A DNA stretch of 33,247 nucleotides from a virus (IMGVR_UViG_3300009782_000011), one strand, 5' to 3'. Shown: positions 1 to 33,247, counted from the first letter of the stretch. Numbers and translations: made by a program. The notes: generated by a model from the sequence alone, not told the origin.

Positions 1-123
1 TATCTAAACAATCGAATGTTCTTTTGATGACCGAAAGCCCCGTCAACTCTGACACTCTTTTCATCTCCCCAATAATGAGCCAACACGAAATCATAAGCAA
101 TCCCCTCCTCTAACATTCTCAAA
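1..123. repeat. Terminal overlap copy 1, identical to 33125..33247 (circular closure of the contig)
   Basis: Direct reading: bases 1-123 match 33125-33247 base for base. The repeat lies inside a coding sequence, so it behaves as an assembly/circularisation overlap rather than a physical genome end. Confidence 0.95.
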
Positions 124-1208
124 ATCCCTCCCCTTGTTAACTCCTCATCAAAGAACTCATCAGCGTCAATCGGTATAATCCCGAAAGGATTTTTGCTTAT
201 CGCATAACTGATTGCTCTTTCTCTCAACAGATTTTCAGCTTTTCCAAATAGCTTGAACTTATGCTCGTAGATCGTGATTGGTAAATATTTTTTTAATCTC
301 TCTAATTCCTCGATTGTTTCTTTGTTCGAGTTATCACAAACAACAACCATTTCATCAATCAAATCTCTTTTAAATAAATCTAAAATAACCCTCGACATAT
401 AGCGACCATTCTCATTGCCGACAATCATCGAGCCAATTATTCTCCTGTGGTCATTCCACTTCTTTTCATAATAGTTTTTGCCATTATAAAAGTTGGCCCT
501 CCAAAATTCCGATTGGTCATTTATACTCTTGCCCCCCCTATGTTCTGCGACTGCCTCTGATATAGCAATTTTGTAACCTCTCTTTTTAATATTTATGCAC
601 ATATCATTGTCCTCCCACATAAAGAAATAGCCCTCATCAAATCCTCCAATCATCTCAAATAATTCCCTCCTAATGCACATAATCGAGCCGTTTATTCCAA
701 AAGATACTTCGCTTTGTTTTGTTCCTACCATTCCGACCTCTTTGTCTTTAAAAGGCTCAATCAATTCCTTAAAAAATCCTTTTTCAATTTTAACATCATC
801 ATTTAAAAACAAAACAAACTCCCCGAGATTTTTATTGATACCTGCCCCCTCATTACAAGAACGAGCAAATCCTCCGACTTGCTCGCTGAAAGTTCTGACC
901 ATAATGTTCAAACTGATTTCTCCCCTCTTTTCGCAATCCCTTAATACTTTTATGCTTTTGACATTCTTTTCATCTTTTGTTGGTATAACAACATCAACAA
1001 AACCCTCTTTGTATTTTTTATCTAAAATGTTTCTGCCTTTCAACTCATCTTTCTCGACATTATCGTCAAAGACTTCCTCCAATATCTCTGTCTTTTCAAC
1101 AATGCCCTCCTCTTTTAGTTTTTCATATAACTCGCTGTCGATTGCCCTCACATCTCCCGGGACATAAGTTTCAAGGCCCTTTAAATATTTAACCAAAATC
1201 TTGGCCAT
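1..1208 (-). CDS. Two-domain family-2 glycosyltransferase, N-terminal part. The gene continues in frame at 33124..32854 once the circle is closed (492 aa total).
   Basis: Absent from the ORF track because it runs off the window edge. Manual translation from the ATG at 1208: MAKILVKYLKGLETYVPGDV... GT2 motifs: VDVVIPTKDE, FLNDDV (DxD), GGFDEGYFFMWEDND. Second GT2-like domain: MIVGNENGRYM, VVVCDNS, IPIDADEF. 1208+271 nt = 1479 nt = 493 codons, in frame with ORF 32854..33246. Confidence 0.85.
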   Translation of the reverse strand, partial: MAKILVKYLKGLETYVPGDVRAIDSELYEKLKEEGIVEKTEILEEVFDDNVEKDELKGRNILDKKYKEGFVDVVIPTKDEKNVKSIKVLRDCEKRGEISLNIMVRTFSEQVGGFARSCNEGAGINKNLGEFVLFLNDDVKIEKGFFKELIEPFKDKEVGMVGTKQSEVSFGINGSIMCIRRELFEMIGGFDEGYFFMWEDNDMCINIKKRGYKIAISEAVAEHRGGKSINDQSEFWRANFYNGKNYYEKKWNDHRRIIGSMIVGNENGRYMSRVILDLFKRDLIDEMVVVCDNSNKETIEELERLKKYLPITIYEHKFKLFGKAENLLRERAISYAISKNPFGIIPIDADEFFDEELTRGGILRMLEEGIAYDFVLAHYWGDEKSVRVDGAFGHQKNIRLFR

Positions 1209-1212
1209 ATTT

Positions 1213-1386
1213 TTATTTTTTAAAATATTCTGCAACTCCTAACTTCACAAACTTGTCTGCCTGTCTTTCATCAAAACCGGCAATCTCTCCCTTGATGTAA
1301 GGAGTAAAGCACTTTATAAATTGAACGAGGACAAAATCTTTTTTCTCCTCTTTCTTTGCAACTTCTTTGACAATTTTTTTCGCCAT
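1213..1386 (-). CDS. Small 57-aa protein downstream of the major capsid gene (MAKKIVKEVAKKEEKKDFVLVQFIKCFTPYIKGEIAGFDERQADKFVKLGVAEYFKK)
   Basis: Manual translation; below the track length cut-off. AAAATT-ATG start context like other genes. Fills the gap between the MCP and GT genes. Confidence 0.6.
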   Translation of the reverse strand: MAKKIVKEVAKKEEKKDFVLVQFIKCFTPYIKGEIAGFDERQADKFVKLGVAEYFKK

Positions 1387-1452: not shown

Positions 1453-2493
1453 CTATTTAACACCAGTCATTTTTTTACACGCGGCCGGTAGAGTGTAAAC
1501 TCCGTCAACGGCTTGTGCAACTACTAATTCAATTTGTAATTTGCTCAATACCTTGTCGGTGTCAACAAACATATTTTCTCCGTCCTTAATCCAGTAATAC
1601 CACATATCGCCGAAATAAATTTCAGTTGTGTCAGCACCACTTCCTAAATTTTCAGGAATGTCAGCACTTTCGACAACTGGGCGTCCGAAAACTTTTTGAT
1701 CGCGAAGGTCAAAAATTGGCACACCATTTTTGTCAACGATTGTTCTCAATGCTTTCATACCCTTTGCAGAAGTAATGAAAACTGCACCGTCCCTATATTG
1801 TTCCGGCAATAAGTAAAATAAATTTACTATATCATCGTAAGTTAGAGCTGTGCTTGCTTGTGGGATTGAACTGATTGAGGCTAATCTCAAACCAGTTGGC
1901 TTGCTATTTCCGTCACCTGCAACGAAAGCTGTTTCCTCTGTATCTCTCAATTTTCTTGCACATAATTCACCGATAAAGTTAACGATGTTATAGGCAGATG
2001 TATTGATTAACTTGCGAGGAATTAAAACTCTTGCAGCTAAATAATAATCGACTAAATCTTTCTTGCCGATTGTTGGGTTGCTTTCTGTGATAAGGTCATT
2101 CTCCCCTACCCAATAAGCAGTCACACCAGTCCCCTCAGTTGGTAACTGGAAATTTCCACTCATTGAGAAAACGAAAGCTAGTTTTCTAATTTTTGCAATC
2201 TTGTCTTTTGCTGTCAAGATAAAACTGGCCAATTCTGTTGGCACGGTATAACCGAAAGATGAGGAAGTTGAGTCAACTGCTTTTCTTTCAAGGTTGCCTG
2301 TGCATAAGTCCTTGATAAATTGAGCAGATTTTTCAACATCATCGTCCTTTGAGTCATCTTTTGCCTCGTCTTTTAAACCGGCTTTAACTTCTGACAAGAT
2401 TTCGGACTTCAAAGCAGGTATGGCCTCTTTAACAGAGTCAGCCATAATCCCCTTTAATTCGTCCATTGTAATCTCTTTTATTTCTGGGTTCAT
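1453..2493 (-). CDS. Major capsid protein, HK97 fold
   Basis: 346 aa, directly after the prohead protease. Typical HK97-family stretches: GYTVPTELASFI, LAFVFSMSGNFQLPTEGTGVTAYWVGEN, TEETAFVAGDGNSKPTGL. Confidence 0.88.
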   Translation of the reverse strand: MNPEIKEITMDELKGIMADSVKEAIPALKSEILSEVKAGLKDEAKDDSKDDDVEKSAQFIKDLCTGNLERKAVDSTSSSFGYTVPTELASFILTAKDKIAKIRKLAFVFSMSGNFQLPTEGTGVTAYWVGENDLITESNPTIGKKDLVDYYLAARVLIPRKLINTSAYNIVNFIGELCARKLRDTEETAFVAGDGNSKPTGLRLASISSIPQASTALTYDDIVNLFYLLPEQYRDGAVFITSAKGMKALRTIVDKNGVPIFDLRDQKVFGRPVVESADIPENLGSGADTTEIYFGDMWYYWIKDGENMFVDTDKVLSKLQIELVVAQAVDGVYTLPAACKKMTGVK

Positions 2494-7912: not shown

Positions 7913-8429
7913 TTTGGTATGCGAACTCTCCATATAGTTCTTTTGCTTTTTTATTGTAGAATAATGCTGCCTCTCTTTCTGTTTCAAAACTCTTTCTATA
8001 AGAAACCCTTTTTCCATCTTTATCTCTTTTTGTTATCATTCCTCGCCAAGGCTTTATTTTTGACCCCCTAACAGATAACGAAACCCCCTTATAGATTGAT
8101 GTTTTATTTTCAGCTTTTGTTGATGAATGCCTGAATAAACTATGTGTTGCATAAATTAAATTTATTTTCCTGAAATCAAGCCAGTCTTTATTTAGATGTA
8201 AAATAATTCTATTTATTTTATAAGGTAAAATATTATATTCTAATGCTAAATCAACAGGTTTCCCATTGTCAGTTATTCTCCTAACAACACTAACGATTTC
8301 TTTGCTATACCGATTTTGTATTCCAATTCTCCACTTAAACCGAGAAAGAACAAGATAATCCTCATCATCTACTATCGCAAACTTTCCTTGTGCCAATTTA
8401 ATTTTTTTCATATACCTCTGATTGGACAA
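7884..8429 (-). CDS. HNH homing-type endonuclease with a C-terminal AP2 DNA-binding domain
   Basis: GKFAIVDDEDYLVLSRFKWR N-terminus, LHLNKDWLDFRKINL (HNH-like), YKGVS...KPWRGMI...FETEREAALFYNKKAKELYGEFA (AP2). Confidence 0.75.
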   Translation of the reverse strand: MSNQRYMKKIKLAQGKFAIVDDEDYLVLSRFKWRIGIQNRYSKEIVSVVRRITDNGKPVDLALEYNILPYKINRIILHLNKDWLDFRKINLIYATHSLFRHSSTKAENKTSIYKGVSLSVRGSKIKPWRGMITKRDKDGKRVSYRKSFETEREAALFYNKKAKELYGEFAYQNEVGKSKRK

Positions 8430-9154
8430 TGAACCACCGGATTGATTGAGAGATTTCCTCCCTGAGTTTTTCTCTTAATCTGAACAACAGAGCGACCCCA
8501 TTTCTTTTGAAATAATTTCGCCTGTTCTTCCTCCTTCTTCATTGTGCGATATGATGCACAGCCACCCTTTTTCTTGATGTGGGCTGAAACATAATGATAT
8601 TTATTAAATCTTAAAATCTTTCTAAATTTTCGAAGAACCTGAATTGAATAGTCATAGTCCTCCTTTAACCCCAACCTCTCATCAAATCTCAAATCCTTGT
8701 CTTTGGTAATCCCCATACACGGGCCGAGTATAACCGATGACAAACTAAAAGGGGAGTATTCTCGATAAAACTTTTTGTCGCTTTGTAAATTTACTCCCCA
8801 AAGTTTCGTCCCCATTTCCTCCGACATTCTGAAAGCATTATCAAAAAAGTGGTAGACCTCATTTTCGCTCATTATAAACAATTGCAAATTCTCGTAATAA
8901 CCAAACTGCTTGATGTCGTCATCTAAAAAAACAACATTGTTTTCCTTTGTGTTGTCGAGCATAAAGTTTCTAATCACGGCCATTCCTTTCCCTGCTAAAT
9001 TGTCCGGTATTGCGATGATTTTATTTCTATTATGTTTTTTGTATTCCTCGACCTCAAACTCGTGGCAAAATATAATTCCACGACTAAACAATTTTGCTGT
9101 TTGGCAATCGCTTGCTCTCTTGTAACTTGGTATTGCAATTTGATACATAGCCAT
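8408..9154 (-). CDS. GT-A fold glycosyltransferase-like protein, stand-alone, 248 aa
   Basis: N-terminal IAIPSYKR and VVFLDDDI (DxD), typical of GT-A enzymes. The acceptor is unknown. Confidence 0.6.
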   Translation of the reverse strand: MAMYQIAIPSYKRASDCQTAKLFSRGIIFCHEFEVEEYKKHNRNKIIAIPDNLAGKGMAVIRNFMLDNTKENNVVFLDDDIKQFGYYENLQLFIMSENEVYHFFDNAFRMSEEMGTKLWGVNLQSDKKFYREYSPFSLSSVILGPCMGITKDKDLRFDERLGLKEDYDYSIQVLRKFRKILRFNKYHYVSAHIKKKGGCASYRTMKKEEEQAKLFQKKWGRSVVQIKRKTQGGNLSINPVVHCPIRGI

Positions 9155-9613: not shown

Positions 9614-10210
9614 TTAACCTAATAACTCTAATAATTTTTTGCCATTAACCACCCTGCCAATTCCTTTTCTGCGATAATCCTCTTTGCTATCTTTGGCATT
9701 GACGGCCTTTAAACCGAACTTGTCCTCGATCGTGAGCCAATCGACTGAATTGTCGAATGTAAAAACGATGTAATTATTCTCCTCTAAAATTTCAGTTGTA
9801 AATTCCTCCTCTTGTGCTATCTCCGAATTGTCTGCTATTGCCTTGTTTATTTCTTTGTCTAAAAAACCGACCTGCCTCAAAAGTTCCTTGTCTAAATTTC
9901 CCAATAAGGCAAAATCAAATTCTCCACCATTTTTGTTCAATCTCAAATTAAGCTCTTTCTCTTGCTCGATGTCTAAGTCAACCTCGACACAGGGGACAAC
10001 CTTGTGGCCCAACTCTTTTGCGATTTTAACTTTTTGATGACCACCGACAATCACATTAAATCTTTTCTTGTTTACATTGACAACAATAGGCTGAACGAAG
10101 TCAAATTTTTTCAATGACTTGGTCAACTCCATTTTTTCCTTGTTGCCAATTTTTCTTGGATTATACTCGGAGGGTTTTAGGTCATCGATTTTTTTATTGA
10201 TTATTTTCAT
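9614..10210 (-). CDS. ParB-like nuclease (ParB/Srx fold) domain protein
   Basis: DLKPSEYNPRK...VQPIVVN...VIVGGHQKVKIAKELG. Confidence 0.7.
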   Translation of the reverse strand: MKIINKKIDDLKPSEYNPRKIGNKEKMELTKSLKKFDFVQPIVVNVNKKRFNVIVGGHQKVKIAKELGHKVVPCVEVDLDIEQEKELNLRLNKNGGEFDFALLGNLDKELLRQVGFLDKEINKAIADNSEIAQEEEFTTEILEENNYIVFTFDNSVDWLTIEDKFGLKAVNAKDSKEDYRRKGIGRVVNGKKLLELLG

Positions 10211-11567: not shown

Positions 11568-11596
11568 ATTATACACTATTTTTTAAACCTTAGCAA
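11568..11596 (-). promoter_or_regulatory. Promoter P3: TTGCTA-17-TATAAT, third copy of the early-promoter family. The -10 ends 6 nt before the ATG at 11561.
   Basis: Minus strand: TTGCTA AGGTTTAAAAAATAGTG TATAAT AAAATT ATG. The spacer is nearly identical to P2. Confidence 0.55.
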
Positions 11597-11981
11597 TAGT
11601 TATTTCAACGCGAGGGTATTCCCTATCAATTCCCCCCGTTTCGTATTGTGTCGATATAATATGATTGTCATCATCGTCTTTTATGCAACCATAATGAACG
11701 AGTGCGTCACAAAAAAACTTTTCCACAACTGACAAGATGTTCGACCGGTCCAATCGACCACCTCTTGCCCTCCACAATACAAATTTTATTTTTATTGGCC
11801 TATCAAATTTTACTCCCGACAATTGCAATTCCATATCATCGCAATATTTTTCTTTTACTTGATTGTTTATCATAAAATGCAAATTGCGATAAACATTGAG
11901 ATTGAGCAAAACTTTTTTGTCTGCCTTTGTTTTTCTTGGCAGTGTAACAGATAACGGACTTGTAAATTTAAACTCGTTCAT
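11583..11981 (-). CDS. rusA: RusA-family Holliday junction resolvase. The start is at the internal Met, because the longer ORF would overlap the tRNA.
   Basis: LNVYRNLHF...DRSNILSVVEKFFCDALVHYGCIKDDDDNHI pattern of RusA endonucleases. Confidence 0.75.
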   Translation of the reverse strand: MNEFKFTSPLSVTLPRKTKADKKVLLNLNVYRNLHFMINNQVKEKYCDDMELQLSGVKFDRPIKIKFVLWRARGGRLDRSNILSVVEKFFCDALVHYGCIKDDDDNHIISTQYETGGIDREYPRVEITIAKV

Positions 11982-11993
11982 AATTTTATTTAG

Positions 11994-12066
11994 CGAGAGG
12001 GGCAAGTTTCGAACTCACTTCTTCGGTTTTGGAGACCAATATTTTAGCCGATTAAACTACCCTCCC
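11994..12066 (-). tRNA. trnW: tRNA-Trp (anticodon CCA), no encoded CCA end
   Basis: Manual fold of the minus strand: GGGAGGG TA GTTT AATCGGCTA AAAT A TTGGT CTCCAAA ACCGA AGAA GTGAG TTCGAAA CTTGC CCCTCTC G. U8, GG in the D-loop, U33, A37, T-loop TTCGAAA and G53-C61 are all present. The discriminator is G73, the bacterial Trp type. Confidence 0.85.
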
Positions 12067-21971: not shown

Positions 21972-21976
21972 AAGTA

Positions 21977-22174
21977 TTATTTTATTTTTTTAAAATAGTC
22001 AACGATATTTGCACCCCACACTAATCCCGATATAGTGATGAAAACCGTGCAAAGAGTCACATCTGCCCCTTGTCCTCCGATTGCTCTGATGATTGTTGAA
22101 AATACCAACAACAAAGAGGACACAATAGTCACAAACCACTTCATTGCGTGCTTTCCGTTATTAGCCTCCTGCAT
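21977..22174 (-). CDS. Holin-like 2-TM membrane protein (65 aa)
   Basis: WFVTIVSSLLLVFSTIIRAI and LCTVFITISGLVWGANIV. Lies directly upstream of the peptidase gene. Confidence 0.55.
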   Translation of the reverse strand: MQEANNGKHAMKWFVTIVSSLLLVFSTIIRAIGGQGADVTLCTVFITISGLVWGANIVDYFKKIK

Positions 22175-22181
22175 AGCTTTT

Positions 22182-22301
22182 CTAAGTTAAAATATTTATA
22201 ATTTTATCGAGCCACCCATATTTATGTTGGAGAGTTCCCCCGACCATAACTCCTGCAAGGAAAGTGACTATTGATTGAACGATGATTTGTAATACTTCCA
22301 T
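22182..22301 (-). CDS. 39-aa single-TM peptide
   Basis: Manual translation: MEVLQIIVQSIVTFLAGVMVGGTLQHKYGWLDKIINILT. Confidence 0.4.
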   Translation of the reverse strand: MEVLQIIVQSIVTFLAGVMVGGTLQHKYGWLDKIINILT

Positions 22302-22305
22302 ATTT

Positions 22306-22443
22306 TTAAAAATAAAACTCTTTTATTACTTGCACAAATATATAAAGCCAAAATGCACAAAACGAAATCACCGAGATCGCAATAAAAGAAATCAGCAAAC
22401 CAAAAATAACATTTAAGATTTTAGATATTTTAAGTTTAGCCAT
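22306..22443 (-). CDS. 45-aa single-TM peptide (internal Met of the 60-aa ORF)
   Basis: MAKLKISKILNVIFGLLISFIAISVISFCAFWLYIFVQVIKEFYF. Confidence 0.4.
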   Translation of the reverse strand: MAKLKISKILNVIFGLLISFIAISVISFCAFWLYIFVQVIKEFYF

Positions 22444-22622
22444 TTTGTTAAATAATTTAATAATCCAATTGCAGGGACAATCCACCAAAAACTCAAATCC
22501 TGTAAATAGGCAATCAAAACCAAAACCAAACCATTAAGAGATTGCCACAAATAAGTTTCGAATTTCTTTGATGTTATAAATCCCTTTATTACTGACCAAA
22601 TTTGTTCAAAAAATTTTTTCAT
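22413..22622 (-). CDS. Holin-like membrane protein (69 aa)
   Basis: Two hydrophobic helices (LNGLVLVLIAYL, WWIVPAIGLLNYL). First gene after the fibre gene. Confidence 0.5.
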   Translation of the reverse strand: MKKFFEQIWSVIKGFITSKKFETYLWQSLNGLVLVLIAYLQDLSFWWIVPAIGLLNYLTKWLNLKYLKS

Positions 22623-22671
22623 ATGTTTGTATTAAGTTATAATATTAAGTTATATTATTATATTAACATTT

Positions 22672-22717
22672 TTGACAATACCCTCTTGACATTTATGTTA
22701 AGACCCTATTGACATTT
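22672..22717. repeat. Direct repeats carrying three TTGACA hexamers: CCCT(C/A)TTGACATTT at 22681-22694 and 22704-22717, plus TTGACA at 22672-22677
   Basis: Read directly, in the 111-nt spacer between the fibre gene and the lysis cassette. Confidence 0.7.
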
Positions 22718-22733
22718 TTGTATATACCCCCAC

Positions 22734-28577: not shown

Positions 28578-29555
28578 TTAGTAGCTTGCTTGTGTGTTGG
28601 TCAATATCGCCTCAATGCTCTTGCTATCTGTTAGTGAGTAAAATCCTTTAAACGATACAGACAAACTTGCAATGTCATTATTTCCACCCGATACTTTTGC
28701 CTCGCTGAATTTTACTTTTGCAAGGTCAATGACAAGTTTTGGGTGAGAGGTTGTTCCGATTGTGACGGCTGAATTTTCCAACTCAATCCTCATTGATTTG
28801 GCTAATCCCTGTATTGCATAATCTCTTTCGTAAACACTTGAAAAATACAATTCCATTGTTCCCTCGATTGTAAATTGTTTATTTAAGAAATCAGCAGGCC
28901 CGTCAGTTCCCAAAACATCTTTGTCCTCAATATTTTTTGATATTTCTATCTCAAAATTTTTGACATCTAATTTGTTTGCTGAACTAAGCCCTGCAAGAGT
29001 ATCGGCTAATTTAACCGAGATATTTTTTGCCAAGAAATAATTTTCTGCAACATAGCTCGGGGTAGCAGTTCCGGCAACTCCGGCCTTTCCTCTCAATGAG
29101 GCCTCAAAGGTAACATAGTCGTTGACCTCTGCTGATAATTTAAAACTATCAACAACAACATTTGCGAAAGCCTTTTGTTCGATGTCTCCTCTTTTAATTT
29201 CAAGAGTCAATGATTGGTGCAATGCAGATTGTAAAACTGCAAAGGTATGCTCATAAACTCCGGCGTCCCCAGACTTTCCGGCAGAATTTACTTGACCGAA
29301 AGCACCCAGTAAAAAATAACCGATTGACTTGTCAAACACTTCTCCCCCGACATTTCCTGCCGAGAAATTTTTTGCAACGACTTGATCGTCGCTGTCCTCA
29401 ATCACTCCCATTCCTCTCTCTGTTACTACTGGCTCAATCTCGTCATTGTATTCCTCTGTTGTTAACTTTAACCACATTGCAGGAGTGACCTTTGTTCCTC
29501 TTGTGGTTTCTTTTCCGACGCCCACATTAAATCGTCTTTTTAAAATCTCGCTCAT
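28578..29555 (-). CDS. Major tail (tube) protein
   Basis: 325 aa. By position, followed by the terminator and chaperone pair. The N-terminal FNVGVGKETTRGTKVTP pattern is typical of tail tube proteins. Confidence 0.65.
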   Translation of the reverse strand: MSEILKRRFNVGVGKETTRGTKVTPAMWLKLTTEEYNDEIEPVVTERGMGVIEDSDDQVVAKNFSAGNVGGEVFDKSIGYFLLGAFGQVNSAGKSGDAGVYEHTFAVLQSALHQSLTLEIKRGDIEQKAFANVVVDSFKLSAEVNDYVTFEASLRGKAGVAGTATPSYVAENYFLAKNISVKLADTLAGLSSANKLDVKNFEIEISKNIEDKDVLGTDGPADFLNKQFTIEGTMELYFSSVYERDYAIQGLAKSMRIELENSAVTIGTTSHPKLVIDLAKVKFSEAKVSGGNNDIASLSVSFKGFYSLTDSKSIEAILTNTQASY

Positions 29556-30175: not shown

Positions 30176-30642
30176 ATTTTTTGTAAAATATTATTTATTG
30201 TTTTATCTATTATTGAATTTACTTTTGCCTCTGTTTGGTCGACAGTTCTCTGCACAAATGGATTTGGTTTTTGTCCGGCAACTCTTTTGGCAAAAACCAT
30301 TCTCCCGTCTCGACCTCTAAACGCTAACATCTTTGCTTTCTTTGGAGTGATGTAACTTCCTTTTGGTCCAAAAATTCCAGTTCCCTCGTGAACATATAAG
30401 GCATAATTTGCAGACTTTCCCGGACCTATCATCGCCCCAATATTAAACAATTTCATCTCAATACTTCTCCTCAAATTTCCCCCCTTATAACTTCCAATCG
30501 GGGCCTCTTTTTTTTCTGTTTCTAAAATCAACGACGCAACTTCTTTGACCGTGTATTTTAACTCCTCCCCAACGATCGCAGGAAATCTTTTAAATAATCT
30601 CTGCAACTCATCTAAATTGTCGACCTTGATTTCAAAAGCCAT
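30172..30642 (-). CDS. HK97 gp10-like head-tail/tail component
   Basis: FKRFPAIVGEELKYTVKEVASLILETEKKEAP...GNLRRSI pattern and position. Confidence 0.6.
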   Translation of the reverse strand: MAFEIKVDNLDELQRLFKRFPAIVGEELKYTVKEVASLILETEKKEAPIGSYKGGNLRRSIEMKLFNIGAMIGPGKSANYALYVHEGTGIFGPKGSYITPKKAKMLAFRGRDGRMVFAKRVAGQKPNPFVQRTVDQTEAKVNSIIDKTINNILQKI

Positions 30643-30645
30643 ATT

Positions 30646-30945
30646 TTAATTGTTCGGTTTATAAATAAAAGCCTCAATCCTTTCTAATGCTCTCAATTTA
30701 AAAACTCGAATTGTTTTGACAATATAAGTTTCCCCCTCACAAACAATTTTGTCTGCCTCTTTTAAATCCTCATTGACATCACAAACCAACTTGAATTGTT
30801 TTGACGGATCGCCCTCCATTAACATTGTGTCCTCTGCCTTGACTGGCAAAATCATTCCTGTTATTTGTCCATTAAGTTTGTATTGCTCGGTTGTAGAGTA
30901 AATATTTAATCTATAAACCGAGATTGTTTGTTCAAAAAATATCAT
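30646..30945 (-). CDS. Head closure / head-tail adaptor protein
   Basis: 99 aa. Call is by position between the connector and gp10-like genes. Confidence 0.45.
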   Translation of the reverse strand: MIFFEQTISVYRLNIYSTTEQYKLNGQITGMILPVKAEDTMLMEGDPSKQFKLVCDVNEDLKEADKIVCEGETYIVKTIRVFKLRALERIEAFIYKPNN

Positions 30946-31508
30946 ACAGTAAAACTTTTATATTTATTAAGTAGCAATTTTATTTCATCACTCATCGAGC
31001 CTGCGAAATTTACGCTTGCCCCCTCTAAACTCTCCGAACTAAGCCCCTCTGCCTTTCTCTTGTTAAATATGGCACTTGATAACTTCAAACAGGCCAATTT
31101 TAAGTCCTCCGGCATTGTTAGCGAGGTGTAACCTGCCTTGTATGTCACTTTATACCCAAAACCACCCAAATCACTACCTCTGACCGATTTTAAGGCAATT
31201 CTGCCCTCCTCTAAATATGTTTGGTAATTTGCTCTTTCCTCCTCGACCCAAGTAGGCACGCTTTCAGTCCCCGAGTTATAGTAGACTTTTAAATCTGAAA
31301 TGTTAATCCTTGTTTGCAGAAATATGTCATTGTTATTCTCGATCGCCTCATCAGAGCTAAAATATTCTGTCAAACTGGTTTCAATTAAAACATTATTGCA
31401 ATGGCTTTCAATAAACTTTTTAGCCCCTGCAATAACTTGGTCGATAACATTGTCATAATTGTTCAATGTTATTCCTACAAATGTTTTGAACTCATCTTTT
31501 GTAATCAT
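30942..31508 (-). CDS. gp6-like head-tail connector protein
   Basis: N-terminal ITKDEFKTFVGIT...VIDQVIAGAKKFIESHCN is typical of gp6-like connectors, and the position fits. Confidence 0.55.
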   Translation of the reverse strand: MITKDEFKTFVGITLNNYDNVIDQVIAGAKKFIESHCNNVLIETSLTEYFSSDEAIENNNDIFLQTRINISDLKVYYNSGTESVPTWVEEERANYQTYLEEGRIALKSVRGSDLGGFGYKVTYKAGYTSLTMPEDLKLACLKLSSAIFNKRKAEGLSSESLEGASVNFAGSMSDEIKLLLNKYKSFTV

Positions 31509-31538
31509 ATTTTTTAAAATTATTTTTGAATTAGCCCG

Positions 31539-31790
31539 TCAAGGTGGGCAAGTCCTTTGATAATCTTTTAATCTTTTAAATCTCAATAAGAGTTCGATGA
31601 CTTCCTCCAATGACTTGTTGCCAAATACTCTGTGCCAATAGCGATGTCTTTCAATATCCAAGACTGCTATATTCCACTTGTCATCTTTTCCACCTTTGCA
31701 TTTATTTACAAGGTGGTGTCTGTTCATTCCCCTCCTCTTGTCTGCTCGCTTATCGACTTTGCGATTGCGATTTTGTTTTCTGATTTTCAT
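31539..31790 (-). CDS. Small HNH-family nuclease (83 aa)
   Basis: NRHHLVNKCKGG...WNIAVLDIERHRYWHRVFG. The only gene examined with a canonical SD (AAAGGAGG, 5-nt spacer). Confidence 0.6.
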   Translation of the reverse strand: MKIRKQNRNRKVDKRADKRRGMNRHHLVNKCKGGKDDKWNIAVLDIERHRYWHRVFGNKSLEEVIELLLRFKRLKDYQRTCPP

Positions 31791-31805
31791 TTTGACCTCC
31801 TTTTT

Positions 31806-32273
31806 TTATTTGATTGTGATTGTGCTTTTTTCAGTTGTCGAGATCGCCTTTAAATAGCTAAACTCTTTTTTTCTTTCCTCACAATCGACAACCCCTTTCT
31901 GCCTCAACCAATCCTCAAACGAGATGTCTTTGTGAAAAAATGTCAATTTGTAATCATTGTAAATATTCTTGATTATATTTCTATCATCTGCAAACATCAG
32001 ACCATAGCCCTCGATTAAAACCTTTTTGTCCTTTGGTAACATTTTCCTGTAATATTTATCTTTTAATTTTCTAACCAATTCTTGATTTTCTTTTTGCCAA
32101 ACTCTCGGATTTGCGAAGTCTAAAATCTCCAACTCTTTCCCGATTTCAAAATAAACGAAATCTGTGCAAAACTCTCTTTCTATTTCAAATAAATCTTTTA
32201 GCATTCTTGCTGTCGTAGTCTTTCCGGCTGAGGGTATTCCCCCAATCATTATAAGTTGTTTTTGCATTTCCAT
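31806..32273 (-). CDS. P-loop NTPase / small-molecule kinase-like protein (155 aa)
   Basis: Walker A: MIGGIPSAGKTTTA. Walker B-like: VLIEGYG. The substrate is unknown. Confidence 0.55.
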   Translation of the reverse strand: MEMQKQLIMIGGIPSAGKTTTARMLKDLFEIEREFCTDFVYFEIGKELEILDFANPRVWQKENQELVRKLKDKYYRKMLPKDKKVLIEGYGLMFADDRNIIKNIYNDYKLTFFHKDISFEDWLRQKGVVDCEERKKEFSYLKAISTTEKSTITIK

Positions 32274-32866
32274 ATAAATCTTTTTGAGTGGATTGCTTTC
32301 GGGCTTGGACTAACAGACGGCCCACAAAACTCAACACTTTTAAAATACTTATTTAAAAGAGCCTCAACCAATTCTTGCTTTGGGGCAAACTCTGGGTCAC
32401 CATTCTCAACCGGCCCCTCTAAAACAAACATCTCTTTTGAAATATCTGCCATTTTTTTAATAAACTCCTCTTTGTCTATTATATAGTGAAATGTCGCCAA
32501 ACACAAGACAACATCAAATTTCTTTTTCCAAATTTTAGCAAAGTCATTTAATTCCATTCTCACAAAATCTCCTTTTATTCCTTGATCGTGGCAATCCTCT
32601 AAATATCTCCAATTGCTATCAACTCCTGTATAGTCCTTAACTCCTGCCTCGTGGCACTTGATACCAATCCGACCAGAGTTACAACCCAAATCCAAAACGC
32701 TTTTCCCCTTGATGTCTTTTTTAATATCTAGCAATCTCCACTTCTCATCAACGAACTCTTGTTTTTGATAATCGTTATGCTCACAAAATAAACGGCTCAA
32801 ATCCTCATCTGTGAAATTGTATTCTCGGTCCTCAACTTTCAATGTGTAATTTTTTAGCTTTTCCAT
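32249..32866 (-). CDS. Class I SAM-dependent methyltransferase
   Basis: Motif I: VLDLGCNSGRIG. Also DVVLCLATFHYI. No DPPY or PC motifs of DNA methyltransferases were seen. Confidence 0.75.
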   Translation of the reverse strand: MEKLKNYTLKVEDREYNFTDEDLSRLFCEHNDYQKQEFVDEKWRLLDIKKDIKGKSVLDLGCNSGRIGIKCHEAGVKDYTGVDSNWRYLEDCHDQGIKGDFVRMELNDFAKIWKKKFDVVLCLATFHYIIDKEEFIKKMADISKEMFVLEGPVENGDPEFAPKQELVEALLNKYFKSVEFCGPSVSPSPKAIHSKRFIWKCKNNL

Positions 32867-33247
32867 AGTTTTAAAAATTTTAATTTATTAAATTTTATAA
32901 TCTCCCCCTCTTTAATCATTCTATTATAAAGGTCGGGATTTTCTAATAGCATTTTTGGGTCGTGTTCCAATTGTCTTTTCTTTTTATCATCAACATCTTT
33001 CTTTTTAATATAGCCAAAATGTTTCAAAATCAAATCTGTTTCTTTTCTATTTTGGTAGGTATAAATAGGCCCCGAGCCACAATGTAAATTTCTATCAAAG
33101 AATTTTTGACTATACTCCGGACAATATCTAAACAATCGAATGTTCTTTTGATGACCGAAAGCCCCGTCAACTCTGACACTCTTTTCATCTCCCCAATAAT
33201 GAGCCAACACGAAATCATAAGCAATCCCCTCCTCTAACATTCTCAAA
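32854..33247 (-). CDS. C-terminal part of the two-domain glycosyltransferase that starts at 1208. The leading 'M' in the track is an in-frame TTG Leu codon.
   Basis: The translation is continuous with 124..1208 through the terminal overlap: ...DADEFFDEELTRGGILRMLEEGIAYDF... Confidence 0.85.
   Translation of the reverse strand, partial: LRMLEEGIAYDFVLAHYWGDEKSVRVDGAFGHQKNIRLFRYCPEYSQKFFDRNLHCGSGPIYTYQNRKETDLILKHFGYIKKKDVDDKKKRQLEHDPKMLLENPDLYNRMIKEGEIIKFNKLKFLKLWKS
33125..33247. repeat. Terminal overlap copy 2, identical to 1..123
   Basis: Same as copy 1. Confidence 0.95.

Follow-up and report, generated by a model that had tools for sequence, protein, structure and literature searches.

What is a set of glycosyltransferase and modification genes doing among the head genes of a tailed phage? 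In HK97-like head modules the connector genes normally follow the capsid gene directly. On the viral contig IMGVR_UViG_3300009782_000011, analyzed here over its whole length of 33,247 nucleotides (the window), four genes intervene, encoding a 492-aa glycosyltransferase (GT), a methyltransferase (MTase), a P-loop kinase and an HNH-like protein. The initial annotation proposed that this block might be a virion-glycosylation system, with host envelope remodelling or DNA hypermodification as alternatives.

At first inspection, the block seems to be split between the two ends of the sequence. Bases 1-123 are identical to bases 33125-33247, and because of this exact 123-nt duplication, which represents an assembly overlap (33125..33247), the contig is circular, with a length of 33,124 bp. 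Circularity justifies reading the block around the junction, from 1208 to 1 and then from 33124 to 31539, as had been done originally; coordinates 31539-33247 hold only part of it, the remainder lying at 1-1208. All four ORFs are present on the minus strand at the positions first given. The slot is bounded upstream by the HK97-type major capsid gene (346 aa; 1453..2493, minus strand; PF05065 Phage_capsid, E 4.8e-48; phrog_10, E 3.7e-51) and downstream by the gene for a gp6-like head-tail adaptor (188 aa; 30942..31508, minus strand; PF05135, E 4.6e-15; PF24163; phrog_442). The tail-tube gene lies at 29555..28578. From capsid stop to adaptor start there are 3,068 nt, and the four genes take up 2,794 nt (2.8 kb), not the 3.4 kb or so originally estimated.

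The block is co-oriented with the late genes and tightly packed among them. The GT and MTase genes overlap by 13 nt and the MTase and kinase genes by 25 nt, as annotated. No terminator-like site was found in 30500-33247, and the only one in 1-2600 falls within the capsid gene (2242..2228); promoter-like matches in these two intervals show no excess over the shuffled expectation. The overlaps had been taken to suggest a single translationally coupled unit. They are real, but relatives differ in gene content, which rules out one co-inherited unit of four genes. A relative, L082, supports reading the block as an accessory insertion into the head module: in it, the capsid gene, a small ORF and the adaptor gene are consecutive, with no GT. 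Slots between structural genes are a common position for morons, and position alone does not indicate function. Hydropathy analysis detected no transmembrane (TM) segment in the GT, MTase, kinase or HNH-like protein, and the maximum 19-residue hydropathy is ≤1.03 in these proteins and in small57, a head-module protein described below. All four block proteins are soluble. There is no flippase or lipid-carrier enzyme within the block and no nucleotidyltransferase in the window.

The largest gene had to be rebuilt across the circular junction: the junction splits codon 403 after its second base, so that codons 1-402 and these two bases lie in 1..1208, and the third base, codons 404-492 and the stop in 32854..33124, both on the minus strand. 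Its product belongs to the GT2 / GT-A fold glycosyltransferases. The two GT2-type domains reported for it are recovered by PF00535 (E 6e-12; 46.2 bits, cut-off 23.3) and PF13641 (E 4.5e-11; 43.6 bits, cut-off 27). An N-terminal module (aa 1-40, nt 1208-1089) is followed by a linker, by GT-A domain 1 (aa ~66-252, nt ~1013-453) and by GT-A domain 2, which starts at aa ~255 and whose end is encoded in 32854..33124. The AlphaFold2 (AF2) model likewise contains two GT-A domains (pLDDT 89.7, pTM 0.85); confidence is low in the linker, at residues 44-47. In an alignment of 45 GT sequences (A1), from which the motif calls derive, N136 and D138 of domain 1 are invariant and D137 nearly so, E199 and D202 are invariant and D200 nearly so, and D292, D348, D350 and E351 of domain 2 are nearly invariant; NDD136-138, ED-D199-202 and DAD348-350 are conserved across the 45 sequences.

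Foldseek comparison of the model with the PDB returned 156 GT-A matches at E≤1e-3. The best are the two-domain polymerases K4CP and PmHS2; the peptide GTs SunS/ThuS and the protein GTs LH3 and ppGalNAc-T also rank high, and the matches take in the teichoic-acid GTs RmlT and TarS. Domain orientation keeps the TM-scores of the top matches low (0.22-0.34). In BFVD, the neighbors are multi-GT-A proteins from uncultured phages and giant viruses. As a direct sequence query, the whole GT had no match in the PDB. A domain 2 profile found the GT domain of GmaR (22ao) as its best PDB sequence match, at a weak E of 0.007 (domain i-E 0.057); query positions 4-209 align with 10-199 of the 204-residue chain, and the motifs IVxNE, DADE and HYGY are collinear. 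The 492-aa protein has no Pfam match to a TPR domain, and hhalign of domain 2 against the TPR-containing GT of the related locus L007 gave a weak 18% probability.

Homologues of the double GT were seen solely on phage-size contigs, and cellular genomes yielded only 22-28% matches, mostly limited to domain 1; judged by such searches, the protein appears to be phage-specific. Among 50,697 phage records, tblastn matched 10, all below 60% identity and at no more than 24% coverage. The original annotation had named DNA-base GTs and Gtr-type enzymes as matches that would count against a virion role. The protein is neither: it has no TM segment, and the structures nearest to it belong to GT-A polymerases and to GTs that act on proteins/peptides or teichoic acid. 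O-antigen modification of the Gtr type (GtrA/GtrB/GtrC) was rejected as a candidate, the block encoding no membrane-anchored GT2, flippase or integral-membrane transferase.

The next two genes form a pair. The MTase (205 aa; 32249..32866, minus strand) is a class I SAM-dependent enzyme matched by PF13649 (E 5e-10), PF13847 and PF13489. By inspection, its sequence contains no DPPY, NPPY or PCQ, in agreement with the first description. Its profile matched only small-molecule O/N-MTases in the PDB, and the enzymes closest to it in PDB and NCBIfam act on small molecules or tRNA. With motif IV absent and relatives of this kind, the reading as a DNA methyltransferase was rejected. The 155-aa Walker-A protein (31806..32273, minus strand) is also present as described, with generic Pfam matches only. 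Its conserved residues are the Walker A G12-x4-G17K18T19T20, D38, E88-G89 and D97-R98. Direct sequence queries of the PDB gave matches at the Walker-A level only. From its AF2 model (pLDDT 94.8), which Foldseek matches best to shikimate kinase 1u8a and gluconate kinase 1ko1 (TM 0.55-0.61), the kinase is predicted to have a shikimate/gluconate-kinase-like (NMP-kinase) fold. The family is small, with 39 representatives among 1.84 billion proteins, about half of which are kinase-MTase fusions; the MTase homologues P0073-76 are likewise fused to the kinase. Kinase and MTase are therefore a coupled pair, and in nearly all loci this pair adjoins a multidomain GT carrying a domain-1-like GT2. The kinase had been called sugar-activating. 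We reject that role because of the predicted fold, the many relatives in which kinase and MTase are fused, and the lack of a nucleotidyltransferase in the window.

The fourth gene stands apart. It encodes a putative HNH-like small nuclease of 83 aa (31539..31790, minus strand) and has its own strong Shine-Dalgarno sequence, as reported, with AAGGAGG 5 nt before the ATG. Family support comes from PHROGs (phrog_655, E 2e-5; phrog_7370, E 0.004) and from the motif RHH...GG...N...H..WH (R-HH-x13-N-x8-H-x3-H), with no Pfam or NCBIfam match. The gene occupies this position of the capsid-adaptor slot only in the window and in L006; L003 has a homologue at a different site, and other lineages lack it beside the GT/kinase/MTase trio. 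The HNH-like gene is a separate passenger, outside the glycosylation kit.

Between the capsid gene and the GT gene lies small57 (1213..1386, minus strand), which encodes a 57-aa head-module protein with a Lys-rich N-terminal tail and a module of ~35 aa. Most relatives keep it behind the capsid gene, and L082, which has no GT, is one of them. The same module occurs again as the N terminus of the GT: residues 19-53 of small57 align with residues 3-38 of relatives' GTs, with E values down to 3e-6. On this similarity, the N-terminal module of the GT appears to be a paralogue of small57. A 21-sequence profile of small57 and the N-module found nothing below E 0.5 in the PDB, and Pfam, NCBIfam and PHROGs offered no functional match.

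Comparison of ~45 loci separates the fixed from the variable parts of the kit. In the HK97-type clade, every one of the 21 loci that bear a homologue has the double GT behind the capsid gene, L082 being the relative without it. What lies downstream of the GT depends on the relative: nothing, MTase plus kinase, an extra GT2, another MTase, or Ig-like/fibre-like proteins. In L001 and L002, the slot additionally holds a BppU_N Ig-like protein and fibre-like proteins of 592/655 aa. The GT is thus the fixed part in this clade, and MTase and kinase are gained and lost independently. Even near-identical phages differ: L047 has GT, MTase, kinase and GT2, L048 has GT, kinase and GT2, and L051 has GT and GT2, a mixture of presence and absence that fits optional decoration of a glycan.

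The kit is not confined to this clade; the head modules that hold it represent three different capsid families. In L007, a 770-aa GT with GT2 and TPR domains and a kinase-MTase lie between an SU10-type major capsid protein (MCP) gene and the adaptor gene, as a related cassette. In L008, L062 and L071 (PF13252/PF25209 lineage), GT and kinase-MTase lie between portal and scaffold/MCP, and in the SU10-like phages L067 and L068 the kit or its kinase-MTase has this position; L068, a 4.3-kb contig, carries a kinase-MTase fusion between portal and MCP without a GT. Pfam returned no matches for the 171/225/241-aa genes of L007 or the 234-aa gene of L062. Phages that use TGA for Gly (code 25) have the trio immediately upstream of the small terminase (TerS) gene; table-11 ORF calling on two of them, L004 and L005, gave no homologue of any window protein because of this recoding. 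Kit-bearing phages, the TGA=Gly phages among them, span 28-52% GC, so the envelopes of their hosts are probably very different. One related contig, L072, comes from an activated-sludge metagenome, and engineered systems appear to be among the source environments. Occurrence at unrelated, non-structural loci had been put forward as an argument against a virion role. Such positions exist in part, namely the trio upstream of TerS and, in L060, an MTase and kinase that adjoin ParB and Mom ~9 kb away from the GT; they are distant from the capsid gene but still upstream of packaging genes.

The recurrence of the kit in head-gene clusters of several unrelated phages therefore makes it most likely that the kit decorates proteins of the virus particle with modified sugars. 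Our preferred reading, to which we give an even chance, is late-expressed O-glycosylation of virion proteins in the cytoplasm, with phosphate and methyl decoration. The virion-glycosylation proposal is supported in part, by head-module recurrence with three capsid families and by the weak GmaR-likeness of domain 2, while a virion protein as the acceptor is something we infer. Under virion glycosylation, both GT-A domains of the 492-aa enzyme would be active: the GmaR-like domain 2 would place the first sugar on Ser/Thr of an assembling structural protein, after which domain 1 (WbbL/galactosyltransferase-like, "ED-D" type) would add further sugars. The order of these steps and the nature of the sugars are conjectural. 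The N-terminal module of 35-40 aa, as a copy of a small head-module protein, may dock the enzyme on a head component. Kinase and MTase, acting as a pair, would phosphorylate and methylate the glycan, perhaps to give a methyl-phosphate cap like the one made by WbdD, and related phages would obtain different glycans by swapping optional parts, such as an extra GT2 or other MTases, in the slot. The HNH gene would be an unrelated passenger. Alignment revealed no GT-linked insertion or Ser/Thr-rich tail in the capsid protein, the capsids of 13 GT-bearing phages being collinear with that of GT-less L082.

The enzymes could also act on the host surface or outside the producing cell. In host envelope remodelling, one or more soluble GTs, working from the cytoplasmic side on the model of prophage TarP, would add sugars to a polymer of the host cell wall (teichoic acid, capsule or S-layer glycan), and kinase and MTase would decorate that polymer; receptors would be masked, superinfection blocked or progeny kept off debris. 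Among the fold neighbors, RmlT and TarS glycosylate wall teichoic acid and K4CP and PmHS2 are capsule polymerases, capping by a kinase and an MTase occurs in O-antigen synthesis (WbdD, PMC3482155), and the variable gene content recalls serotype-converting loci. We nevertheless consider remodelling unlikely. TM or amphipathic anchors, a flippase and carrier-lipid enzymes are lacking; the larger ORFs yielded neither an integrase nor a lysogeny gene, which makes lysogenic conversion unlikely; the hosts of kit-bearing phages probably have very different envelopes; and the kit lies in head/packaging operons, not near lysis or early genes, with a GT that bears a domain derived from the head module. 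That same domain, which duplicates part of a head-module protein and is attached through a flexible linker, together with the position of the GT gene directly after the capsid gene, is what would be expected if the GT were itself virion-associated or ejected, with the small57-like module targeting it to the capsid and the enzyme acting in the next host or on the particle surface. The N terminus is, however, divergent in code-25 homologues, and the GTs of cluster O mycobacteriophages were not found in virions (PMC4351075), so that we regard a virion-borne enzyme as decidedly improbable.

Nucleic acids are the other conceivable target. The GT might add or extend sugars on modified bases, kinase and MTase modifying them further, so that the packaged genome is shielded from restriction. 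The window does invest in DNA modification, with a TAGT gene (9154..8408; PF20691, E 7.6e-19) beside ParB_N, and Mom takes the place of TAGT in L003 and L060, the MTase and kinase of L060 adjoining ParB and Mom. The trio also abuts terminase genes in code-25 phages, and P-loop kinases act in thymidine hypermodification. Still, it is a different gene of the window that matches TAGT; the double GT matches neither TAGT nor any DNA-GT, and no DNA-base GT is among the 50 PDB fold neighbors listed. Moreover, the MTase is small-molecule-MTase-like and lacks DNA-MTase motifs, the nearest kinase folds are shikimate and gluconate kinases, the double GT co-occurs with TAGT, with Mom or with neither, and single-gene loss in near-identical phages is ill-suited to an obligatory base-modification pathway. 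DNA hypermodification is accordingly quite unlikely in our estimation. We hold it very improbable that kinase and MTase form an RNA end-healing or tRNA-modifying unit (Pnkp/Hen1-like) directed against host anticodon nucleases and linked only incidentally to the GT: no ligase or phosphatase partner accompanies the pair, which adjoins GTs in nearly all loci, and shikimate/gluconate kinases are much closer folds than Pnkp1, at Foldseek rank 43. The weak matches to polynucleotide-kinase and tRNA-MTase PHROGs, and those of the MTase to CmoB, Hen1 (E 0.014-0.034) and MePCE, would suit such a unit, but the MTase matches are generic class I similarities.

Virion glycosylation can be set beside several known systems. 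In cluster O mycobacteriophages, an O-MTase and GTs lie within the head gene cluster and are expressed with the structural genes; in Corndog, gp35-38 are an O-methyltransferase, two GTs and a GlcNAc-transferase (PMC4351075). The window shares with these cassettes, and with those of Che8-type GTs, the placement of GT and SAM MTase genes inside the virion structural operon. There is, however, no meaningful sequence relationship between the enzymes. The tblastn matches of the window GT are to Gordonia phage GTs (23-24% coverage, 27-31% identity), which sit at ~59-60 kb of 67-69-kb genomes, near the right end. The window further differs in that two GT domains are fused into one protein, headed by an N-module that resembles a head protein, in that a P-loop kinase is coupled to the MTase, and in its slot, between capsid and adaptor; kits of its type occur in phages of AT-rich uncultured hosts, TGA=Gly lineages included. 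Among eukaryotic viruses, chlorovirus PBCV-1 A064R and giant-virus GT/MTase proteins build capsid glycans. These too are virus-encoded, soluble, multi-domain GTs combined with a methyltransferase for glycans on capsid proteins, and a BFVD neighbor of the double GT is a Catovirus "glycosyltransferase and methyltransferase domain protein"; they differ in their domain families, in making N-linked glycans and in having no kinase.

For the individual enzymes, the parallels lie elsewhere. In Listeria, GmaR acts in the cytoplasm to O-GlcNAcylate flagellin, a structural protein that assembles itself (PMC9638930). The alignment with domain 2 covers the entire GT domain of GmaR, with three motifs in common at the weak E value given above, whereas the TPR substrate-recognition domain of GmaR is absent from the window protein and has a counterpart in the GT2+TPR protein of L007. 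K4CP chondroitin polymerase (2z86) and PmHS2 (8vh8), the best fold matches (E 1e-12 and 2e-10), resemble the double GT in having two GT-A domains per soluble chain, each with a DxD motif. Identity is 12-13%, TM-scores are 0.26-0.34 and the domain arrangement is different; there is no sign of processive polymerization for the window GT, and the polymerases lack a head-protein-like N-module. The Clostridioides difficile type A flagellin glycan, GlcNAc with a phospho-linked N-methyl-threonine, is made by GT, phospho-transfer and methyltransferase genes (CD0240-CD0244; PMC4441256), the same logic of GT, phosphate and methyl, with phospho/methyl enzymes (CD0241-0244) that are unrelated to those of the window. 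WbdD of Escherichia coli O9a is a bifunctional kinase and methyltransferase that caps polymannose with methyl phosphate (PMC3482155). As in the window kit, a kinase is coupled to a SAM MTase (by fusion in many relatives of the window pair) and associated with glycan-building GTs. The kinase of WbdD is eukaryotic-protein-kinase-like, unlike the 155-aa P-loop protein with its predicted NMP-kinase fold; WbdD is absent from the PDB sequence matches of both MTase and kinase, and the window enzymes have no coiled-coil ruler and are not membrane- or lipid-linked.

Tentatively, these parallels point to a broader possibility: widely scattered, previously unrecognized glycosylation kits in phage head modules, which would place O-glycans on capsid/tail proteins in phages whose hosts are uncultured anaerobes or TGA=Gly candidate-phyla bacteria. 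The GT might be recruited by its head-protein-derived domain, and the glycans might be finished with phosphate/methyl, possibly methyl-phosphate, by a P-loop kinase-MTase pair, which would then resemble WbdD by convergence. The kinase-MTase family is very small, is matched by generic models only and is consistently tied to head genes, which makes it a tractable target for finding new glycan modification chemistry. So far, the only phages shown to glycosylate their virions with enzymes of their own are actinobacteriophages, which infect mycobacteria and related bacteria; there, the glycosylation weakens the neutralizing-antibody response. If our reading is right, the kit would be a compact, soluble and self-contained protein-glycosylation toolkit, a two-site GT with optional kinase/MTase cappers, that would lend itself to testing in E. 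coli and to glyco-engineering. Glycosylation of the particle would then be a recurrent, horizontally exchanged trait in tailed phages of very different hosts, reaching far beyond actinobacteriophages to candidate-phyla bacteria with an altered genetic code, and would bear on phage-host recognition, particle stability and immune recognition.

Every gene in the window lies on the minus strand. In order of transcription the head region encodes the HK97-type major capsid protein (346 aa, 2493..1453; PF05065, E 5e-48), small57 (57 aa, 1386..1213; no family match), the double glycosyltransferase (GT) with its two GT2-type domains (492 aa, 1208..1 plus 33124..32854; GT2 families), a class I SAM methyltransferase (MTase; 205 aa, 32866..32249; PF13649 and relatives), a Walker-A protein, here called the kinase (155 aa, 32273..31806; generic P-loop matches), an HNH-like protein (83 aa, 31790..31539; PHROG matches only) and a gp6-like head-tail adaptor (188 aa, 31508..30942; PF05135/PF24163). 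Comparison of the window ends revealed that bases 1-123 equal 33125-33247, an exact 123-bp terminal duplication. The genome is therefore complete at 33,124 bp, circular, terminally redundant or circularly permuted, and the block wraps around the ends; joining the ends naively would duplicate 41 codons of the GT gene. Together with the ORF and family assignments, this bears out the initial annotation in placing four genes between capsid and connector genes across the ends, and the gene overlaps of 13 nt and 25 nt and the AAGGAGG ahead of the HNH gene were likewise recovered. Its figure of about 3.4 kb for the intervening DNA was wrong: the four genes occupy 2,794 nt, and 3,068 nt separate the capsid stop from the adaptor start. 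No terminator was found inside the block, and promoter-like matches in this region did not rise above shuffled expectation.

The AF2 model of the double GT is confident (pLDDT 89.7, pTM 0.85) and begins with a small beta-beta-alpha-beta module at residues 1-40, from which a linker of low confidence leads to two GT-A domains; in 45 sequences the acidic motifs of both domains are conserved. At the top of the Foldseek matches in the PDB stand the two-domain polymerases K4CP and PmHS2, followed by the peptide S-glycosyltransferases SunS/ThuS, LH3, RmlT, TarS and ppGalNAc-T; in BFVD the neighbors come from uncultured phages and giant viruses and are multi-GT-A proteins. For domain 2, the best PDB sequence match to the profile is the GT domain of GmaR, an alignment that is weak (E 0.007), though collinear across the whole domain (IVxNE, DADE, HYGY). 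GmaR is a cytoplasmic enzyme that adds GlcNAc to flagellin (PMC9638930). Domain 1, which bears the motif FFMWEDND, is a GT2 of the WbbL/Glyco_transf_7C-like kind.

Homology links the stretch 3-38 of the double GT to residues 19-53 of small57, with BLAST E values down to 3e-6 against the GTs of relatives; within L048, a member of the HK97-type clade, the two copies are roughly 60% identical by eye. In the alignment covering both modules (A5), the ~35-aa unit (consensus VKFxKxxTPYVKGDI...YxxLxKxGxV) stands twice in tandem, at window positions 1213-1386 and 1089-1208, one copy free-standing behind a Lys-rich tail as small57 and the other forming the GT N terminus. No relative of the module was found in PDB, Pfam, NCBIfam or functionally annotated PHROGs. 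Because small57 is also present in L082, a phage lacking the GT, small57 is the older gene. The GT copy may serve to dock the enzyme onto a component of the head.

Among 5.8 billion proteins searched, 48 close homologs of the double GT were recovered (43-100% identity), many on contigs of 25-36 kb; 42 span 89% or more of the query, and the others are shorter or truncated. Full-length relatives in 185,579 species genomes are restricted to three small contigs in MAG bins (Bacteroidia, Atribacterota and Falkowbacteria), and the other cellular matches reach only 22-28%, mostly limited to domain 1. The double GT is specific to phages; it is fixed in one clade, though accessory at a deeper level.

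Gene maps were drawn for 27 loci, 21 of which belong to the HK97-type clade and share one order: capsid, usually small57, double GT, a variable set, adaptor. The variable set is empty in L003, L011, L042-46 and L049/50; it holds MTase, kinase and HNH in the window and L006, MTase, kinase and a 205-aa GT2 in L047, kinase and GT2 without MTase in L010 and L048 (confirmed by coordinates), GT2 alone in L051, and a different MTase (165-186 aa) with GT2 in L009, L040 and L041. L082, whose capsid protein is 60% identical, has capsid-small57-adaptor and no GT. Taken together, the shared order and L082 indicate that the GT is an old insertion into the capsid-adaptor slot; the varying sets make MTase and kinase optional add-ons. 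The HNH gene is a separate passenger: only the window and L006 have it in the slot, and L003 has it at another place. In L001 (9481-13129) and L002 (9430-12943), the position of the window's MTase, kinase and HNH genes is filled by an extra GT2, a BppU_N Ig-like protein of 118-125 aa and fiber-like proteins of 592/655 aa, with CarboxypepD_reg/Big_1 in those of one of the two; these may be head fibers or decoration proteins. Several relatives also have the portal as two adjacent ORFs (e.g., 468 + 215-228 aa; L002 3321-5410 and the portal region of L044-L046), whereas the window has a single 690-aa portal/Mu_F fusion; the split could be real, or it could stem from a frameshift or from an error of assembly.

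The kinase model is confident as well (pLDDT 94.8) and is closest to shikimate and gluconate kinases (TM 0.55-0.61). Walker A, D38, E88-G89 and D97-R98 are kept, and D38 probably corresponds to the catalytic or substrate-binding Asp of related kinases. The MTase is a generic class I enzyme nearest to small-molecule O/N-MTases. Searching with it returned four fusion proteins of 334-343 aa, each with the kinase on the N-terminal side of the MTase. A kinase profile searched through 1.84 billion representatives gave no more than 39 proteins with E<=1e-3; roughly half of these are 330-360-aa fusions with Methyltransf_11/25/23. Kinase and MTase thus form a functional pair, one that accompanies multidomain GTs. 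In the SU10-like phage L007 (1454-10900), a ~7.4-kb island, the largest version seen, separates the SU10-type capsid and adaptor genes and encodes a 145-aa protein, GT2+TPR (770 aa), GT2 (221 aa) and GT4-like+GT2 (503 aa) GTs, a kinase-MTase fusion and three ORFs without a family match. L008, L062 and L071 (PF13252/PF25209 capsid) have, from portal to scaffold and capsid, a weakly cytidylyltransferase-like ORF, a 539-553-aa GT and a kinase-MTase, and the short contigs L070, L073 and L074 carry GT plus kinase-MTase. L067 and L068 place a kinase-MTase between SU10 portal and scaffold/capsid; on the 4.3-kb contig of L068 there is no GT. L060 (3783-4879) and L049 (8001-9461) are one contig (IMGVR_UViG_3300025018_000639), on which MTase and kinase lie ~9 kb upstream of the GT, ahead of the genes for ParB, Mom and the large terminase. 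The L060 and L068 layouts imply that the pair is separable from the GT.

In L004, L052-54 and L056, double GT, MTase and kinase (or the fusion) lie immediately upstream of the small terminase gene, at 52%, 32% and 36.5% identity to the window's proteins; no further flanking protein is related to the window's. These phages and L005 (trio at, e.g., L004 10001-12515 and L056 1382-2854) have ~30% GC, read TGA as glycine, encode Cpn60 and give a faint P22-like portal match. The L004 GT gene contains 29 in-frame TGA codons and only five GGN codons, and 19 of its 27 window-aligned TGA codons fall on glycine in the window protein; public gene calls render them as Trp. This points to hosts with genetic code 25 (Gracilibacteria/Absconditabacteria-type).

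Elsewhere in the window, a 248-aa protein (8408-9154, minus strand) matches TAGT, the TET-associated DNA base glycosyltransferase (PF20691, E 7.6e-19). Its gene is upstream of those for the terminase, next to that of a ParB_N protein (9614-10210, minus); no TET/JBP was seen among the window ORFs scanned. The equivalent place in L003 and L060 holds a Mom-family protein (PF25680), and L006 has TAGT plus a Methyltransf_21 protein, so that the site looks like an exchangeable DNA-modification hot spot. The genome's longest non-coding stretch (21972-22733), AT-rich with a local AT-skew reversal, contains three head-to-tail 23-nt repeats (TATTGACATTTTTG..ATACCC; 22661-22729; 74-83% identical), which may be origin iterons or may form a promoter/operator array. 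Among the early/replication genes there is one tRNA-Trp (CCA) gene (11993-12066, minus); it overlaps the mechanically listed ORF 11583..12005 at its start.

The initial annotation proposed a virion-glycosylation system. The observation behind it stands and is more general than could be seen from one genome; the interpretation is supported in part, and we hold glycosylation of virion proteins to be about evenly balanced between right and wrong. Against it, the capsid sequences of phages with and without the GT align collinearly, the resemblance to GmaR is weak, and some kits lie near terminase or ParB/Mom rather than capsid. Moreover, unrelated cargo commonly inserts between structural genes. 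Modification of a host-envelope glycopolymer is unlikely: no TM-like segment was found in any of the four proteins. DNA hypermodification seems quite doubtful; the MTase is devoid of DNA-MTase motifs, and the 50 listed Foldseek PDB matches of the double GT include no DNA-base GT or GtrB. That the GT, with its head-protein-like module, is itself virion-borne or ejected is improbable, and RNA repair is hardly credible, Pnkp1 appearing only at rank 43 among the kinase's structural matches.

The system would be best filed with phage-encoded virion glycosylation, itself already known. Among the closest precedents are flagellin glycosylation in the cytoplasm, one case of which yields the GlcNAc-phospho-N-methyl-threonine glycan of C. 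difficile (PMC4441256), and, for the kinase-MTase pair, capping by methyl-phosphate as performed by WbdD (PMC3482155); membership in these families fails on sequence or fold, and the likeness is one of logic, not descent. What appears to be new is the fused two-site GT with a head-protein-like module, the small P-loop kinase-MTase family tied to head genes, of which we found no description as such in the literature, and the occurrence of the kit in TGA=Gly phages. The kit recurs in head or packaging clusters of three capsid families, its enzymes are soluble, the decorating enzymes are gained and lost in combinations, and the GT joins a GmaR-like domain, which would be the initiating one, to a head-protein-derived module. 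These features fit a modular glycan decoration that would work in the cytoplasm, when and where heads assemble.
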